IMG/VR virus record: IMGVR_UViG_3300019487_000034
Location: 1-61,068 of that record
Source: a virus
Taxonomy: Duplodnaviria; Caudoviricetes
Strand: one strand, 5' to 3'
DNA: 61,068 nucleotides
Made by a program: the position numbers and the translations under genes. Within the stretch, counting starts at the first letter, position 1; the number at the start of each line of letters is the position of its first letter. Positions 6,336 to 22,128 of the stretch are shown here, in pieces. The notes beneath the pieces were generated by a model. That model ran no database searches, was not told where the DNA came from, and saw nothing but the letters and a program-made list of their open reading frames with translations.

Positions 6336-7112
6336 ATGATTAAGTTTCTTCTGGCATTGTTCACTTCGTTCTATGCGTGTACGGGACTGTCCGATTCCCT
6401 ATTCATCGGGGGAGGTACACCTGCGAAGGTGGTAAATGTTGATAATCATTTCCTCTATCTCGATGGGGTGATCACGGGTCAGACTATTGCTCCACTCCAA
6501 GAGGCACTCGAGAAGATCATCACCGCCGGTGGCAGTAAACGAGCAGTAACAATCCTCATCAATTCCCCGGGCGGTGGTGTCGTTGCCGGTATGTCCTTCA
6601 TTAATCGAATGCAGACTCTCCGTGCCCTGGGTACCGAGATTAACTGCTATGTGCTAGATGTTGCTGCCTCGATGGCATTTCAGATTCTCACTCAGTGTAC
6701 TACCCGGTATACTATGCCGACCTCCTTCCTCCTCTGGCACGGGGTTCGAATGGGAACGTATCAGCCCATTACGGCCGAACTGGCCCGGCAGATGGCAGCT
6801 GATCTCGAGCGCATGGACTTCATGGTAATGCGGCAGTTGGCTAGTACCCTCAGTATGAAGGATGATGATATCCGTAGTCACTTCCGCAATGAGACCCTGT
6901 GGTCCGGTGCCGGTCTACATTTCATAGACCCCTACTTCATTAGTATCGAGGATGCCTATCCAGAGTTGATGTCGAAGTTGGATACTGCTGTTCGCACCGA
7001 GGAGCCTATGTTCTTCCTACAATTGGATGGCATGATCTACATCTGGGAGAGTTGGGCTCGGAAGGCTGGTTTGATTCCAGCTATTCAACCTGGCATGGAG
7101 GGGGCACAGTGA
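6336..7112 (+). CDS. ClpP/S49-like serine protease with N-terminal signal-like peptide
   Basis: ILINSPGG, AASMA (Ser), LLWH (His), ETLW motifs. Confidence 0.8.
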   Translation: MIKFLLALFTSFYACTGLSDSLFIGGGTPAKVVNVDNHFLYLDGVITGQTIAPLQEALEKIITAGGSKRAVTILINSPGGGVVAGMSFINRMQTLRALGTEINCYVLDVAASMAFQILTQCTTRYTMPTSFLLWHGVRMGTYQPITAELARQMAADLERMDFMVMRQLASTLSMKDDDIRSHFRNETLWSGAGLHFIDPYFISIEDAYPELMSKLDTAVRTEEPMFFLQLDGMIYIWESWARKAGLIPAIQPGMEGAQ

Positions 7113-7459: not shown

Positions 7460-7553
7460 CCTGTGCCCTGCGGTATTAATGAGGGACCGTGACCAGGCTC
7501 CGGTGTGGGTGAGCGTGGATGACCCAGTGTGGATCTACCGTGGAGTACTCTGA
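7332..7553 (+). CDS. Hypothetical protein overlapping the previous gene's 3' end
   Basis: GGAG RBS; stop overlaps next ATG (TGATG). Confidence 0.45.
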   Translation: MRFHKETLRDMASRLSGNPRGILVMQWPSRKLWMIRTPLPLGDLCPAVLMRDRDQAPVWVSVDDPVWIYRGVL

Positions 7554-8635
7554 TGTCAATTATCCGGTTGGATATTGGGCAGCGATTACGAGAGGGCCGG
7601 CAGCTTGCTCGCCGTGAGTACCAGGCCCAGGATGTCCTGAAGCTCGGTGTACTCCGTGCGGGTAACTCCGGCATTGTCTCGGTTGACGGTGAGGTAGCTG
7701 CCTCGTGTCACAGGGTGGCACATCTCCGGCAACTCGGCATCGAGGTGGATCCACCGGATGACTCCTCCCTGTTGATGTTCCAGTTGGGCACCGCCAATGA
7801 ACAAGTGGTATACGAGGACCTGGTGCACACGGCCGGATCCGACGAGGTTATCCTCAGAGAGGAAGAGATCCCGATCGAGTGGTTCACGTCGAATGGTACG
7901 AAGGTTACGGGCCGCCCGGACATGGTGATCTGTCACCAGACCCAGGGTCCGGACTGCGAGCCCAAACCGGTGTTATGCGTGGAGATTAAGAGTATCGCCT
8001 CAGTGTGGACCAGTAGTGCCGTGATGTTCGATGGTGAGCCCAAGCTGGGGCACCTGGCCCAGGTGGGCCACTATATGTGGAAGCTGGGAACCCCGGGACG
8101 TATAGTCTACAAGCAGTATGCTATCCAGGAGATCCCGAACTGGACCGAGGTGGTCAACGGTGAGAAGCGCAAGGGCTGGGGTCAGAAGCTATTCCCCCGT
8201 GCTGGTGCTCCGGGTTCCGAGCTAATAGACTACGAGAAGGGTCGCATCCGTCCGTTCGAAGTAGTGTATGAGTTGGAGTTTACGGACGACGGCGTGCTCA
8301 AGTATAAGCGGGAGGGAGCCGAGACCGATTGGACCTTGACGATCGTGAGTACTACTGACATTGCTCGATTCTATGAGCTGGTCTCCAACATGGCTAGCAC
8401 AGGTAACCTGGGTCCCCGGCCGCTCACACTCTCCCCGGATGGGTCGACCAAGCGGTTCACGAACTGCGCATACTGTCCGTTGAATGCGGTGTGTGATTCG
8501 GTTGAGGGTGCCGATCCTGGTACGCAGTACCTGCAGTGGCTGGATGCAGTGCGAGAACATGTGGCGAACCGAGGGGCTAGTAGTGAAGTGAGCCCAACAC
8601 CGAAACGGGTTGACAAGCGTAGCAAACTGAAGTAA
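7553..8635 (+). CDS. Cas4/AddB-like PD-(D/E)xK exonuclease
   Basis: N-terminal SCHR Cys, GRPD, VEIKS, QVGHY, C-terminal CAYCPLNAVC (four-Cys Fe-S staple pattern). Confidence 0.75.
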   Translation: MSIIRLDIGQRLREGRQLARREYQAQDVLKLGVLRAGNSGIVSVDGEVAASCHRVAHLRQLGIEVDPPDDSSLLMFQLGTANEQVVYEDLVHTAGSDEVILREEEIPIEWFTSNGTKVTGRPDMVICHQTQGPDCEPKPVLCVEIKSIASVWTSSAVMFDGEPKLGHLAQVGHYMWKLGTPGRIVYKQYAIQEIPNWTEVVNGEKRKGWGQKLFPRAGAPGSELIDYEKGRIRPFEVVYELEFTDDGVLKYKREGAETDWTLTIVSTTDIARFYELVSNMASTGNLGPRPLTLSPDGSTKRFTNCAYCPLNAVCDSVEGADPGTQYLQWLDAVREHVANRGASSEVSPTPKRVDKRSKLK

Positions 8636-8638
8636 TGT
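8610..8638 (+). promoter_or_regulatory. Sigma70-type promoter
   Basis: TTGACA-N17-TAATGT. Confidence 0.55.
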
Positions 8639-8694: not shown

Positions 8695-8991
8695 ATGGCG
8701 TACAACAGTGGAACGAAGTATTCTGGTACGAAGAATGCAACTGGAACCGGGGCAGCCCGTGCCGGTGCAACACGTGCGAAGGTGGCACCTCTCTTCTCCA
8801 CGGGTCTCTTCGTGAAGAAGGATGACGAGGGCAATCCGGTCTCGGGTGCAACTCTCGCCTCGGTCCAGGTCAAGGAGACGGTTACTCTTCCCGCTGGTAG
8901 TTGGATTAACCTCTATGCCAATGAGCCGAAGACTCCCAATCATCCGGAGTTCAGCATCAAGGTGAACCCGGGTCAGTTGCGGCAAGCTTAA
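8695..8991 (+). CDS. Putative small ssDNA-binding protein (DUF736-like)
   Basis: Beta-rich with NEPKTPNHPEFSI; follows exonuclease; AAGGA RBS. Confidence 0.4.
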   Translation: MAYNSGTKYSGTKNATGTGAARAGATRAKVAPLFSTGLFVKKDDEGNPVSGATLASVQVKETVTLPAGSWINLYANEPKTPNHPEFSIKVNPGQLRQA

Positions 8992-8996
8992 GTTTG

Positions 8997-9360
8997 AGCC
9001 CGGGCAGTACCCGGGTAGAGGGAGGTGGTAACCGTGTATTACCCCGTACAACGAGGCGTTACTGGACGCCTACCCACAAACGCATCAGCTTCGTTACAGC
9101 TGGATCGGATCTGATCACGATCCCAAAACTGATACTGCCTGGACATGCAGCAAAACTGTCCATCCAACCAAGATGTGGCGGCGTGGGAAGCTGGACCTGA
9201 CAGGGCAACTCTGTTGGAGACCTGGAGACACGCAGTGAGCAAACGGACCTGACCGGATCTGTACTGAAAGCGTACCGCACAACGGCATTGAGTTGCCAGG
9301 GCGCACGAGTGGTGAAACCAGATCCTCGCTGGAGTAGCGCCCGGCCCACATCTAATCAAC
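8997..9360 (+). ncRNA. Large structured non-coding RNA of unknown family
   Basis: ORF-free gap with many helices, e.g. AGATGTGG 9171-9178/CCACATCT 9346-9353, GGCAACTC 9204-9211/GAGTTGCC 9290-9297, GGGCGC 9299-9304/GCGCCC 9337-9342. Confidence 0.7.
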
Positions 9361-9375
9361 CCATCGGAGATTATC

Positions 9376-9543
9376 ATGGCAGTAGCAACTAATCCAAAGC
9401 GTTACCAGAATCAAGCGATGAGCAAGCCGATCCCGATGCGATCCGAGAATCATGCAAAGGTGAAGTGGATTGCACGAGATCCAGCTAAGCGTAACCGCAA
9501 GCAGCGACGTGCCTGGGCTGCCATCACGGGAGAATCTCTATGA
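9376..9543 (+). CDS. Small basic protein (55 aa)
   Basis: GGAG RBS; MAVATNPKRY...NRKQRRAW. Confidence 0.6.
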   Translation: MAVATNPKRYQNQAMSKPIPMRSENHAKVKWIARDPAKRNRKQRRAWAAITGESL

Positions 9544-9638
9544 CAGGAGAACACGTTCTCATCGGTGTTGTCATACTACTGAACATCCTGATATTTGCAG
9601 GCATGTTCTATAGCCAGGAACTGGAGAAATCCAAATGA
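9540..9638 (+). CDS. Small membrane peptide (32 aa)
   Basis: MTGEHVLIGVVILLNILIFAGMFYSQELEKSK; ATGA overlaps at both ends. Confidence 0.55.
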   Translation: MTGEHVLIGVVILLNILIFAGMFYSQELEKSK

Positions 9639-9955
9639 ATGACATTCTCTCCCATGCAGAGATCCAACAGTTGCTCCTCCGCAATAATGCTCAGCCCGAG
9701 CTGGGTCGTCCCCAATACATTGGCTGGTCCGACAATCGTATCCGCCCGATATCCCAGTCGGATCTGGACGAGGCGAATCGTCGGGCCAACCTCGGTCCTG
9801 CGCTCAACTACCAGCGGTGGCTAGCCAAGCTCAACTCCAAACGGTGGCGCTTCAATGCTGGCAAGGGGCATCGCTATTGTATGCGCCCGACTAGGGTCCG
9901 TGCCGGTGATAGCTGGCAGTGGTCCGAGGTTGAACTCAATGCGAGAGTGAGGTGA
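9635..9955 (+). CDS. Hypothetical protein
   Basis: GGAG RBS. Confidence 0.65.
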   Translation: MNDILSHAEIQQLLLRNNAQPELGRPQYIGWSDNRIRPISQSDLDEANRRANLGPALNYQRWLAKLNSKRWRFNAGKGHRYCMRPTRVRAGDSWQWSEVELNARVR

Positions 9956-9958
9956 GTA

Positions 9959-10546
9959 ATGAACATGACACCCCGATTCAAGTTCGAACAGTTGAATGAG
10001 GGCGACTCAGTGGAGTTCGGATTCTCCACCTCCTCCTGGACTGATGTTGCAGATCGCCTATACGACTTCCTGCTGGGCTGTGGCTTCAGTCTCGGTCGTC
10101 AGGACCTGGCCGATCACTTCGATCAGTCGGTATTCTCATCGGTGGTAGACGGGGTCATCGAGGAGCATAGTGATGCTCTAGATAAACTGGATGATCGTCC
10201 GGATCAGTTCGCTCCGGAACGGTACACGGAGCTGGATAATCATGCGGAGCGATATGGCATGCAGGGTCCAGGGGAGGAGGCCAGCCCGGCCCCGCCGGGT
10301 ACTCTTGCCGCTACACCCAGTAGCCCCCGGTTACTGTACGAGTTTACAGCATCCGATACCTATGGGAAAACATTGCCAGAGATCTGGGCCGTTGCTCGTC
10401 GCAGCGTCGAGGCCCAACAGGACTACGAGATGCAGGTGGACGGAACCATGTGGCCTAGTTATCGAGTGGTCATGACTGGATGCACGGTGAATGATTCCTC
10501 CGATGGATTACAGTACCTATTCGAGGTGTGGAGTAATTATGTCTAG
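9959..10546 (+). CDS. Acidic hypothetical protein
   Basis: GAGGTG RBS, 195 aa. Confidence 0.7.
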   Translation: MNMTPRFKFEQLNEGDSVEFGFSTSSWTDVADRLYDFLLGCGFSLGRQDLADHFDQSVFSSVVDGVIEEHSDALDKLDDRPDQFAPERYTELDNHAERYGMQGPGEEASPAPPGTLAATPSSPRLLYEFTASDTYGKTLPEIWAVARRSVEAQQDYEMQVDGTMWPSYRVVMTGCTVNDSSDGLQYLFEVWSNYV

Positions 10547-10745
10547 AACAGTTTCCACTCGCTGTCGTGTCTACGAGGAGGGAACCCAGGACTATCACGG
10601 GGATAACACGCTGGATGTACTGAGTCATTGGAACATTCACCGCTGGGTGGTACTGAGGCTACCGGATGGTCAGCGCTTCACGGTTACTGCGGCAGATCTG
10701 CAGGCTGCAATTACAAATGCAACTAACTTCAGCATGGGTGAGTAA
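10539..10745 (+). CDS. Hypothetical protein
   Basis: GGAG RBS, operon packing. Confidence 0.6.
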   Translation: MSRTVSTRCRVYEEGTQDYHGDNTLDVLSHWNIHRWVVLRLPDGQRFTVTAADLQAAITNATNFSMGE

Positions 10746-11395
10746 TGCCGTATCACAATTGGTCCGATGATTCCGTCGATTGGGAGGGTATCAACGATGC
10801 CGCTCGTTACATTGCCGTATGGCTCCGTCGCTGGGCCCGACTTCCCGTCCGAGATTACAAGGAGAAGTTCGGGACAGTTCGCATCTATTGCGGTTTCGGC
10901 TGGCACCAACTCCACGATATCACTCACCCCGGATATTGTTTCTCACAGTATCCCGAGTGGCTGTGGCATCTAGACTGCCGCTACATCCGTCGGCTCATGC
11001 CTCTCGTGAACTGGGCAGTAGTACCCGTGCACCGAGCATTGTATCGCTGGCGTTACGGTCGAGCTATTCGCAAGTGGCCCCATTTGGCAGGCGAGATCCT
11101 CATGGGTGCCGACTGGCACGAGGATCTTCTCGGCCTAGATCCCAATCTGCATCTGGTGCAGACTGGAGATCACAGTTGGAGTTACTGGTGGACCGGCTAT
11201 GACGGGGGCCGGAAGGATTGGAAGACGAAGTTCATGCTGGAGCAGGAGGCATACGATGAGGGAACTGAAGCTCTCCCCGGAGGACGAGCATCTACGGAAG
11301 TTCTGCCAGGTGATACCTCGGAACAATCATCGTCGAGCGGGAATCCAGATGTACCATGCGGTGATGACCCGGACGTTAACGGGTCGGAAACGTAG
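10745..11395 (+). CDS. Trp-rich hypothetical phage protein
   Basis: YKEKFGTVRIY motif; TAATG overlap. Confidence 0.65.
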   Translation: MPYHNWSDDSVDWEGINDAARYIAVWLRRWARLPVRDYKEKFGTVRIYCGFGWHQLHDITHPGYCFSQYPEWLWHLDCRYIRRLMPLVNWAVVPVHRALYRWRYGRAIRKWPHLAGEILMGADWHEDLLGLDPNLHLVQTGDHSWSYWWTGYDGGRKDWKTKFMLEQEAYDEGTEALPGGRASTEVLPGDTSEQSSSSGNPDVPCGDDPDVNGSET

Positions 11396-11801
11396 GCGAA
11401 GGGCACCGCCCGTTTACCGGTTGATCATGCAGCGAGTCCTAGGTGTGAGGCGCCTGCCTCGGCGCATGCATGTGGATCACATCAATGGCGATCCCCTGGA
11501 CAATCGCCGTGAGAATCTGCGCATGGCAACACCGATGCAGAACGCAGCCAATGCACATAAGCGTAGTGGTTGCAGCAGCATCTACAAAGGTGTGAGCTGG
11601 TGCAGAGTGAAGCGGAAGTGGAAGGTCGAACTGAATCTAACCGTGATCCCGGGGCTAAGAGGTCGCCGATCCCGGGCGGTCCGTCTCAACCTGGGTTACT
11701 TCGAAGTTGAAGAGGATGCAGCTGCATGCTATAACTCCATCGCTACCGAATGGTACGGTGACTTTGCGAGATTGAATGATGTTAACTCAGCGGATGATTG
11801 A
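11256..11801 (+). CDS. HNH homing endonuclease with AP2-like domain
   Basis: VDHINGDPLDNRRENLR, SIYKGVSW, LGYF..EEDAA..YN, GDFARLN; GGAGG RBS. Confidence 0.85.
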   Translation: MRELKLSPEDEHLRKFCQVIPRNNHRRAGIQMYHAVMTRTLTGRKRRRRAPPVYRLIMQRVLGVRRLPRRMHVDHINGDPLDNRRENLRMATPMQNAANAHKRSGCSSIYKGVSWCRVKRKWKVELNLTVIPGLRGRRSRAVRLNLGYFEVEEDAAACYNSIATEWYGDFARLNDVNSADD

Positions 11802-11967
11802 CCAGCAATGTAGAGATGCATACGGTATGATACAGATGGACTGGCTCCTTGCCTTGATGGATTTACTGAAGATACCACCCGAGGAACGGTGGCCCTGGTA
11901 CGGTCAGCTGATATATAATCGACAGTATGATATCCGCAGAAAGTTCCCCGACATAACGGAGGATTAA
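11776..11967 (+). CDS. Hypothetical protein
   Basis: Fills gap before polymerase. Confidence 0.5.
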   Translation: MMLTQRMIDQQCRDAYGMIQMDWLLALMDLLKIPPEERWPWYGQLIYNRQYDIRRKFPDITED

Positions 11968-11968
11968 C

Positions 11969-20181: not shown

Positions 20182-20688
20182 ATGCCTTCTTGGAATATCA
20201 TTACTGCTGGTACCGGGTGGGGTACTGGTGACGCTGATTGCCCTGTTATGTCAGAAACTCCACTATTGGTGGACCACCCGATTGTGAATACTGGTACCCA
20301 GGTGAATGCCACTACGGCAACTATTCAGCAGGCACTGACCGCAGGTCCAGCACTTAAGTTTGATACTGCTAAGGTGAGGCTCGAGCTTCTCTCTGTACCC
20401 GCTATGGAGGCTATTGCCGAAGTGATGACCTTCGGTGCCCGCAAGTATGCAGCTCACAACTGGCGCAAGGGATTCGAGTGGTCTCGCCTATTCGGTGCAC
20501 TACTCCGGCACACGTTCGCCGCAATGAGGGGCGAGGACCGAGACCCGGAGTCCGGTCTCCTCCATCTGGCTCATGCCGGTTGCTGTGTCATGTTCCTATT
20601 GGAGCATGTCCTCTGCAAGCTGGGTACGGATGACCGGTATAAGTCGATTGTCGTCGAGACAATCCCGAACGAAGTGAGGGGGAAGTGA
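20182..20688 (+). CDS. DUF5664 dATP/dGTP diphosphohydrolase-like protein
   Basis: KFDTAK, FGARKYAAHNWRKG, ALLRH, DPESGLLHLAHA. Confidence 0.85.
   Translation: MPSWNIITAGTGWGTGDADCPVMSETPLLVDHPIVNTGTQVNATTATIQQALTAGPALKFDTAKVRLELLSVPAMEAIAEVMTFGARKYAAHNWRKGFEWSRLFGALLRHTFAAMRGEDRDPESGLLHLAHAGCCVMFLLEHVLCKLGTDDRYKSIVVETIPNEVRGK
20646..20680 (+). repeat. Two-hairpin element copy C
   Basis: GATTGTC-GTCGA-GACAATC then CC-GAACGAAGTGA-GG, inside the 3' end of a CDS. Confidence 0.75.
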
Positions 20689-21319: not shown

Positions 21320-21595
21320 ATGAATGATGGATACCTTGCTAGACTGAAGCTTGTGGAACAACAGATCACTGTGATGCGCTCCGATATGAACAAGGCGCTC
21401 AATGAGGTCATGGACACAATAACCAAGATGATGACCGCCCATCGCATGTTCCAGATCTACATCGATGAGAACCTGAGGGAACTTCGGGATAAGGCAGGAC
21501 TCTCAGGTTCGCTTCTCACAGATGGTCTCGCCTCGACCGAGGATACGTCATCGATGGCGCCCTCGACGGGCGATGTCGGAGGCAAGGAGTTATGA
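21320..21595 (+). CDS. Coiled-coil hypothetical protein
   Basis: ATG after GGAGTGAG. Confidence 0.6.
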   Translation: MNDGYLARLKLVEQQITVMRSDMNKALNEVMDTITKMMTAHRMFQIYIDENLRELRDKAGLSGSLLTDGLASTEDTSSMAPSTGDVGGKEL

Positions 21596-22128
21596 TCCCC
21601 GAATTTGGTCGGGTCATGATTGGCTGGTATATCCTGTTCCTCCTCCTACTTGTCACCACTGGCTGTGGCTATGATGAGTGGAGAGAGACCGACTGTTACG
21701 ATGGCTGTGAACCCCCGGAGGAATATCCAGATGACCAAGATAGCGAAACCCGCAGTGTTACTGTGGTCGGACCTGCAGGGCCTACGGGTCCGACTGGACC
21801 GAGTGGTAAAAGGGGGCGGACCGGGGATCCAGGAGTTGCTGGCAAACCTGGACGAGATGGAACTGATGGTGCTCCGGGGACAGCTGGTGCAGATGGTCAG
21901 CCAGGTCCAGTGGGTACTCCAGGCGCACAGGGCGAGGAAGGGCCCGTAGGGCCGACTGGTGAGGAAGGGCCGGTGGGGGATACGGGGCCACAGGGCGAGG
22001 AGGGTGGTAGCTGCACTACGTATTACATCAATGGAAATCAGGACTGCGGTGTGGTGATCGAGTGCGAGGATGGAACACTGACAGAGATTCCCGGTAAGAA
22101 GTATAATAGGCCAATCTGTGCACACTGA
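21592..22128 (+). CDS. Collagen-like (Gly-X-Y) putative lipoprotein
   Basis: Hydrophobic N-terminus with TTGC; more than 25 contiguous GXY triplets; Cys-rich C-terminus. Confidence 0.8.
   Translation: MIPEFGRVMIGWYILFLLLLVTTGCGYDEWRETDCYDGCEPPEEYPDDQDSETRSVTVVGPAGPTGPTGPSGKRGRTGDPGVAGKPGRDGTDGAPGTAGADGQPGPVGTPGAQGEEGPVGPTGEEGPVGDTGPQGEEGGSCTTYYINGNQDCGVVIECEDGTLTEIPGKKYNRPICAH

Follow-up and report, generated by a model that had tools for sequence, protein, structure and literature searches.

A conserved structured RNA motif set mostly among early genes of tailed phages and outside the families of Rfam 15

The described systems closest to the element reported here are phage transfer RNA (tRNA) genes, the small ribozymes of phages, riboswitch aptamers, ssoA replication origins and orphan RNA motifs. 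Phage tRNA genes are small, autonomous and four-armed, with a terminal helix that closes them. The phage hammerhead, twister, twister-sister, pistol and hatchet ribozymes present a conserved core with dispensable stems, lie between cistrons on the same strand and occasionally occur as paired copies, and the hairpin ribozyme is built on a four-way junction with two docking loops. Riboswitch aptamers are multi-helix junctions closed by a P1 helix and are frequently placed just upstream of a start codon. The ssoA single-strand origins of rolling-circle plasmids are strand-specific folded elements in a replication context, defined by an RSB sequence and by CS-6 in the terminal loop of a long hairpin; the passages that treat them give CS-6 as TAGCGT (PMC4598088, PMC8860593) and RSB as TTATGCCGAGAAAATTT (PMC4598088). 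Finally, the Rfam orphan motifs and the 10,006 phage RNA-structure candidates, uncurated, that are described in passages of Fremin, Bhatt and Kyrpides 2023 (PMC10690425) are covarying intergenic structures in IMG/VR phage contigs, with no known function. The element reported here resembles each of these in several of the respects just named. It occupies positions 9171-9353 (+ strand) of a 61,068-nucleotide (nt) stretch of tailed-phage DNA (Caudoviricetes; IMG/VR record IMGVR_UViG_3300019487_000034, positions 1 to 61,068), hereafter the window. It lies in a non-coding gap of 384 nt (8992-9375), between a gene for 98 amino acids (aa; 8695-8991) and a gene for 55 aa (9376-9543), in a tightly packed + arm. 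We conclude with high confidence that this element belongs to a conserved family of structured RNAs in tailed phages, a family that stands outside Rfam 15. The word "new" applies here to the RNA family, as nothing in Rfam resembles it, and not to a mechanism. The motif is mostly embedded in early operons, once per genome, and its presence does not depend on any particular neighbour gene or phage protein.

All parts of the window copy lie on the + strand. The motif is closed by an 8-bp helix, P1, whose 5' strand AGATGTGG (9171-9178) pairs with the 3' strand CCACATCT (9346-9353). A near-invariant junction CG (9179-9180) follows, and then a near-invariant helix, P1a (GCGTG at 9181-9185 with CACGC at 9229-9233). 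This arm opens into an internal loop with GGAAGCT on the 5' side (9186-9192) and TGGAGA on the 3' side (9223-9228); both sides are conserved in the alignments, the invariance of the 5' side being partly by construction of the search patterns. Beyond it stands a variable hairpin, P2 (9193-9222; stem CCTGACAG/CTGTTGG, loop GGCAACT, closed by G9193-C9222). The variable middle domain (9234-9327) has no conserved sequence and consists of a linker (9234-9254) and P3, whose closing stem is GGATCTG/CAGATCC (9255-9261 with 9319-9325). The last arm, P4 (9328-9345), is a 5-bp hairpin with an 8-nt loop (GCTGG, loop AGTAGCGC, CCGGC) which abuts the P1 3' strand with zero nucleotides between. The window copy scored 108.2 bits (E 2e-30) against our covariance model R1 over the full model length, with every part at these coordinates.

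The same fold describes the family. A P1 of 6-8 bp closes a multi-way junction, from which the P1a arm leads through a purine-rich internal loop (GGAAGCU/UGGAGA) to P2, and the P4 loop follows the consensus AGU(A/C)GCG(A/C/U), or AGUMGCGN, in most of the 41 copies, with TAGCG in 17 of them and TCGCG in most others. The lengths vary widely: 136-291 nt from P1 to P1 (median 171, 41 copies), 14-86 nt for P2 and, among the first 22 copies, 50-133 nt for the middle domain, in which a closing stem just before P4 could be seen by eye in many copies.

The family was reached through the 368-aa nuclease encoded upstream of the gap in the window. This protein had 240 relatives at E<=0.001, and an alignment of 33 of them led to 7 IMG/VR and 54 metagenome loci; the gap was thus compared with 61 nuclease-family loci, which did not include the closest nuclease relatives, at 71-73% identity. 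Without any pattern, blastn and nhmmer matched window 9161-9355 to positions 2205-2395 of one locus, L028, in three collinear blocks (E 0.005), although the L028 nuclease is only 41% identical to that of the window, and gave a weaker match to a second locus, L058. The element begins in L028 9 nt past the stop of the homologue of the 98-aa gene, and a hairpin and T run resembling an intrinsic terminator come after it; in L058 it fills the space between the nuclease gene and a pyrimidine-dimer-glycosylase-like gene. Only these first three members were found pattern-free. For covariance model R1, 13 distinct sequences were then aligned with MAFFT and given a hand-drawn structure; over the 61 nuclease-family loci the model recovered only L028 and L058, a weak absence for the others, as many of these loci end soon after the nuclease gene. 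IMG/VR single-protein locus searches with polA and with the 98-aa protein gave no loci.

Further members came from pattern scans, each match being judged by the covariance model. An exact pattern on the two conserved blocks gave 14 stretches in IMG/VR (10 distinct), all confirmed, and 4 stretches in GTDB species genomes, 2 of them true: a phage-like contig binned with Bacteriovorax (79 bits) and an isolate of Peiella sedimenti (65.5 bits), in which the copy presumably sits in a prophage. When two P1a pairs were left free, 20 stretches and 7 new loci were obtained, all 7 with consensus letters at the free positions. Allowing a longer P2 gave 11 stretches (9 distinct), all confirmed, and freeing three P1a pairs and the CG gave 52 stretches, with 32 new loci among them, of which 10 were true (>=55 bits) and 22 due to chance. 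The final alignment holds 41 distinct copies, scoring 45.8-119 bits against R1, from IMG/VR phage contigs, two metagenome contigs and two bacterial assemblies; the carriers are 42 IMG/VR stretches from contigs of 4.7-162 kb, the Peiella isolate genome and the Bacteriovorax-binned contig. Several candidates were set aside: L078 and L079 were chance pattern matches inside AMP-binding and DAO genes (11 and 21 bits), L130 and L136 were rejected at 17 bits, 20 further loci of the loosest scan had no model match, and L023 matched only over a 28-nt end (11.8 bits).

The pairing of the model is borne out by covariation. In the 13-copy MAFFT alignment, which was not fitted to the model, 86.9% of pair cells were paired versus 30-46% when the partners were slid by 1-3 columns; changes on both sides occurred in 16 of the 22 pairs, and the observed values were reached by none of 500 shuffles. 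For the 41 copies, whose alignment was made to R1 and so leans towards the model, the figures were 93.5% versus 31-47%. Double changes were found there in 17 of the 22 pairs (212 cells), distributed as 8/8 in P1, 5/5 in P4, 3/4 at the base of P2 and 1/5 in P1a. The second pair of P1a, C14-G89, is C-G in 35 sequences, U-A in 3 and U.G in 2, and never C.A. Over the whole structure G.U cells outnumber A.C cells by 17 to 5 (p 0.017); therefore the structure belongs to the named (+) strand. Taken together, the motif is a strand-specific structure, formed within one molecule, that is under selection and has a conserved core.

This structure found no counterpart among catalogued RNAs. At gathering score, Rfam 15 gave no match in the whole window, and in 17 motif-bearing loci it matched only tRNAs, none of them at the motif. 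When the threshold was relaxed to E<=10, two weak matches, both overlapping the domain, appeared in window 8900-9450: an S15 leader at 9321-9424 on the + strand (E 1.7, 13.4 bits for a gathering score of 39.5), and adapt33_3 at 9166-9317 on the minus strand (E 7.2, 11.2 bits for a gathering score of 70). The same search in 11 loci gave 9 weak matches, none overlapping a motif. No credible match to a riboswitch or ribozyme family of Rfam was obtained at the motif even at this threshold, and the known self-cleaving ribozyme classes were thus excluded for it by the Rfam search. ARAGORN called no tRNA in the window, and none overlapping the motif in 32 loci. A 14-nt string of the core had no occurrence in the searched literature, and topic searches gave no description of the motif; the viral, prokaryotic and bacterial passages of a 2026 bioRxiv ribozyme preprint held nothing relevant. 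The motif may be among the 10,006 candidates of PMC10690425, as far as the passages on that set allow; unlike the Rfam orphan motifs, it is not in Rfam 15.

The gap around the motif is truly non-coding, because no frame or candidate open reading frame (ORF) scores as coding and the flanking genes do. On a codon-usage score whose training set was 24 long window ORFs (mean +0.18 per codon), the 98-aa gene reached +0.29 and the 55-aa gene +0.15 per codon. All six frames of the gap and seven candidate ORFs were negative (ORFs -0.04 to -0.22 per codon). A 112-aa minus-strand ORF scored below zero and was rejected as a gene, and the two longest gap ORFs had no Pfam match. GGGAGG (from 9021) precedes a GTG-initiated ORF of 26 codons (9035-9115, -0.04 per codon), which is probably no gene.

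A sequence-only reading of this DNA had taken the gap for a single multi-domain RNA of about 360 nt, almost all helices and organised by UGAAA T-loops. The whole gap is indeed non-coding, and local hairpins can be drawn in its 5' half; however, that half (8992-9170, +) behaves as a non-conserved spacer outside the motif, with no coding signal and no match in any fetched locus by blastn or nhmmer, and in L028, L058 and many other loci the motif starts at most 20 nt from the upstream stop. A DNA search with the gap region in 50,697 phage records gave no match. Nor is the folding energy above chance: against shuffled sequence, the minimum free energy (MFE) of the whole gap has a z of -0.17 on the + strand and -0.44 on the - strand, and its two parts -1.34 (8992-9170) and -0.50 (9171-9353). 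The features named in that reading sit within a base or two of their given places, and its closed domain with the 8-bp helix is present and conserved. A 6-bp helix, GGGCGC/GCGCCC (9299-9304 with 9337-9342), does form in the MFE fold but competes with the covarying P4, which the comparative data favour, and is absent in relatives. The repeat GGACCTGAC exists (9193-9201 and 9245-9253), as do the UGAAA loops (9265-9269 and 9313-9317), but they lie in variable parts, both loops and the second repeat inside the middle domain. UGAAA occurs in the middle region of 9 of the 41 copies versus 4.2 expected from shuffles, at varying positions, and a fold organised by T-loops is not supported. The prediction of a new phage RNA thus stands for the 183-nt domain, with its homologues, covariation and absence from Rfam, and falls for the wider span: the earlier reading spotted a real element, drew its borders too wide and argued from non-conserved features. 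On comparative evidence the gap is not one 360-nt RNA, as this evidence supports only 9171-9353 (+), and we regard the larger RNA as very improbable. The spacer also holds a perfect CCCGGG/CCCGGG hairpin (8999-9015, 5-nt loop), 8 nt after the stop of the 98-aa gene, without a T run and not conserved in relatives.

The motif is present as a single copy in the window and in all four records at least 96% complete (47.6-162 kb), and the carrier phage genomes have a GC content of 40-54%. Paired copies, with one or two small genes between them, occur in two contigs: L082 (3475-3771 and 4148-4313) and L141 (4605-4811 and 5783-5943). The upstream copy of L082 is divergent, with CGGTGTGGAAAGCTG and a P2 of about 200 nt in which a sequence resembling block 2 occurs a second time. 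The copies at L141 5783-5943 and L133 1181-1337 share an identical 32-nt P2 and differ in P1, junction and middle domain, which suggests recombination between motif copies of different phages.

By a crude ORF caller (>=60 aa, longest first), both nearest ORFs lie on the motif strand in 22 of the 41 copies and at least one does so in 36, of which 14 have one same-strand neighbour (13 with the other on the opposite strand, 1 without an ORF called on the other side). In four copies (L074, L085, L087, L149) both nearest ORFs are on the opposite strand, and one more has an opposite-strand upstream ORF and nothing called downstream. The adjacent ORF matches TerL in L085 and a metallophosphoesterase in L149 (PHROG matches), the downstream ORF of L074 is TerS, and for L087 there is only a portal gene about 900 nt away. 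The copies in L071 and L133 converge with the next gene. The packing is frequently tight: the upstream same-strand ORF ends at most 25 nt away in 17 of 41 copies, and the downstream one starts at most 60 nt away in 15. In the window itself, a GGAG ribosome-binding site (9366-9369) and the ATG of the 55-aa gene (9376) follow, the start lying 22 nt after P1.

Such placement would suit a cis-acting element of early mRNA, be it a stability or processing barrier or an RNA that alters the transcribing polymerase or the ribosome to the benefit of downstream genes, as a put-like antiterminator or a translation enhancer would. Of the first 23 copies, 13 have a start codon with its ribosome-binding site 13-40 nt past P1; a terminator-like hairpin with a T run follows the L028 copy, and T runs stand directly 3' of P1 in several copies. 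Nevertheless, 4 of 41 copies have opposite-strand neighbours on both sides, and two copies are in convergent orientation to the next gene; inspection by eye revealed no conserved alternative pairing that would involve the ribosome-binding site, and genomes carry one copy each, not one per operon. We thus consider this explanation quite unlikely. A riboswitch aptamer that senses a metabolite such as a nucleotide and controls the downstream gene would share the P1-closed junction fold with conserved core and the frequent position just upstream of a start codon, and genes of nucleotide metabolism are found within about 2 kb of copies (dUTPase, MazG, RNR, thymidylate synthase, DUF3310 kinase). Unlike riboswitches, however, the motif has no common downstream gene, some copies lie against their neighbours or have no same-strand downstream gene, and neither a recognisable expression platform nor an Rfam riboswitch match was found. 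A riboswitch is accordingly most improbable.

Most other genes within about 2 kb of copies belong to replication and recombination: ERF, Sak4, SSB, Gam, exonucleases, a Cas4-like nuclease, RusA, DNA polymerase, helicase-primase and methylases. Terminase or portal genes lie near the copies in L065, L071, L074, L082, L083, L085, L086 and L087. An HNH endonuclease lies near the copy in L081, and endonucleases of this kind are often found beside terminase genes. A metallophosphoesterase gene (phrog_221) adjoins the motif in three relative orientations (L086 1367-2071, L143 6863-7564, L149 5577-6278). The only flanking family recurring in at least 3 loci is the PD-(D/E)XK-like nuclease (4 loci), no downstream family recurs, and no protein family common to all five near-complete carrier genomes was found by blastp at E 1e-4, remote homology being outside this test. 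With its place in the early replication and recombination region and no phage-encoded partner in common, the motif suggests that phages interact at the RNA level with a function conserved among hosts.

The earlier suggestion of a role in replication has as its sole basis these replication, recombination and nucleotide-metabolism genes flanking many copies; no switch of GC skew supports it in the window, where none was seen near 9-9.2 kb and the sole one lies at about 24 kb, where the gene arms meet. The same neighbourhood could suit a single-stranded DNA signal for priming or initiation in the replication module, like the sso origins or G4-type primase sites. Copies stand among SSB, Sak4, ERF, exonuclease, DNA polymerase and helicase-primase genes, once per genome and in an orientation that is not always that of transcription; G.U cells are rare (about 2% of paired cells), and the P4 loop AGTAGCG has TAGCG in common with CS-6 (TAGCGT) as given in passages of the ssoA papers, a likeness of only 5 nt. 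Unlike the ssoA origins, as far as those passages describe them, the motif shows by eye no RSB counterpart in its conserved blocks, hosts and replicons differ, and most copies lie in operons. Against a DNA signal also stand the missing skew switch near 9.2 kb, the fact that 36 of 41 copies have at least one neighbour on their own strand, the tight packing between cistrons, and the excess of G.U over A.C with U.G intermediates in P1a, which is expected for RNA though not exclusive to it. We take the motif to act as RNA and not as single-stranded DNA, because of the co-orientation with genes, the tight packing from stop to start and the U.G intermediates, and a DNA signal appears improbable.

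The function that we tentatively favour, while holding it short of probable, is that of a discrete, stable small RNA whose conserved core would act on a partner universal among hosts. Such an RNA would be made within early replication and recombination transcripts; copies oriented against their neighbours would instead have a transcription unit of their own. P1 would isolate the motif as an autonomous fold; the closure by P1 and the orientation of some copies against their neighbours are our grounds for regarding it as an autonomous module. It would persist as a small RNA of about 140-290 nt, like phage tRNA genes embedded in and cut from operons. The conserved core would be the functional surface, probably with the P4 loop docked on the P1a/P2 internal loop, and the partner would be common to very different hosts, rather than a phage-specific protein or one downstream gene; possibly no partner would be needed. 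Excision, docking and partner are steps that we infer from motif, pairing, distribution and contexts.

The likeness to tRNA genes goes further than size and topology. The last hairpin, with its 5-bp stem, stacks on the closing helix as in tRNA, and 2 nt follow the 5' strand of that helix; also, the motif is scattered singly in intergenic spots, mostly co-oriented with genes. A tRNA-Asn(GTT) gene is found in L064, L065, L071 and L119, 5 nt past the covariance-model match in L065 and 5-6 kb away in the others. Unlike tRNAs, however, the motif has no T-loop or D-loop sequences and ARAGORN calls no tRNA at any copy; its P4 loop has 8 nt (AGUMGCGN), its remaining arms are much larger and vary between copies, and there is no conservation of a CCA or discriminator. 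The tRNA-like topology is thus a lead and not a sign of membership.

Several points weigh against a discrete small RNA of this kind. All copies are known from sequence alone, and we infer both their transcription and the discrete species. Scans for promoter-like sites were negative both upstream of the opposite-strand copies L085, L087 and L074 and, by consensus, inside the window gap, and no consistent terminator follows the motif. The squeeze of many copies between a stop codon and a ribosome-binding site fits a cis-acting mRNA element just as well, and the orientation counts come from a caller that miscalls the window's own upstream neighbour. Exact patterns on the two blocks served to collect the members, so the near-invariance of these blocks is in part built in, and single-sequence folding of the window copy recovered P1 and P2 and missed P1a and P4.

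The main rival to a stable small RNA is a new class of self-cleaving ribozyme, which would cut early polycistronic RNA between cistrons, the junction and internal loop forming the active site onto which the P4 loop docks. This would agree with a conserved junction and internal-loop core amid peripheral stems of very different length (P2 of 14-86 nt, motif of 136-291 nt), with tight same-strand intercistronic placement in many copies, with carriers of 40-54% GC that have no phage protein or flanking gene in common, and with the paired copies flanking one or two genes in L082 and L141. Hammerhead, twister, pistol and hatchet ribozymes show such a distribution in phages. However, compared from sequence alone, the motif is longer than the small ribozymes of phages, indeed larger than known small ribozymes, and no Rfam ribozyme model matches it even at E<=10; also, orphan motifs tested so far have mostly not been ribozymes. 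We hold a new ribozyme class to be unlikely, though to be reckoned with.

Whether as a small RNA or as a ribozyme, the motif could represent a new class of catalytic or host-hijacking RNA, a prospect that we regard as possible but doubtful. Its catalytic form would be a self-cleaving ribozyme with a four-way-junction core unlike known classes; in its hijacking form, the invariant core would bind a universal bacterial machine (RNA polymerase, the ribosome or a tRNA-processing enzyme) and redirect it in early infection. Past ribozyme and riboswitch classes were found among new RNA classes of this kind, with dozens of diverse members around a strongly conserved core. The motif is widespread in the early replication and recombination region, and its short transcripts and clear secondary structure make it directly testable; the covariance model can be used for wider searches of the family.

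The window locus departs from the gene order of its relatives, which runs Clp-like protease, nuclease, 98-aa protein and DNA polymerase A. The distance from the 98-aa gene to polA is usually about 100-250 nt in relatives versus 2,977 nt in the window. The extra stretch (8992-11968) comprises the gap, small ORFs, a 216-aa gene whose homologues are placed elsewhere in relatives and an HNH endonuclease gene (11199-11801, PF13392), and has the appearance of accessory or mobile DNA inserted into the replication module. The 368-aa protein (7529-8635) had no Pfam or PHROG match and is called a PD-(D/E)XK/Cas4-like nuclease because blastp groups it with a protein of L123 annotated in PHROGs as CRISPR/Cas-associated (phrog_1706). 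The 98-aa gene (+ strand) has homologues in the same phage family; its reading as an SSB gene was not upheld, with no Pfam, PHROG or PDB match and an AlphaFold2 pLDDT of 57.9. The sigma70 promoter proposed upstream of it does show TTGACA (8610-8615) and TAATGT (8633-8638) spaced by 17 nt but failed a consensus scan.

Some other genes of the window deserve mention. The Clp-protease-like gene (6336-7112; PF00574, E 1.4e-9) keeps its place directly before the nuclease gene in many loci of this phage family, whose genomes are of about 60 kb. The ORF at 20182-20688 encodes a dATP/dGTP diphosphohydrolase N-terminal domain (PF18909, E 1.7e-32), a domain linked to phages with modified purines, and the ORF at 21592-22128, in the replication arm, contains collagen triple-helix repeats (PF01391).

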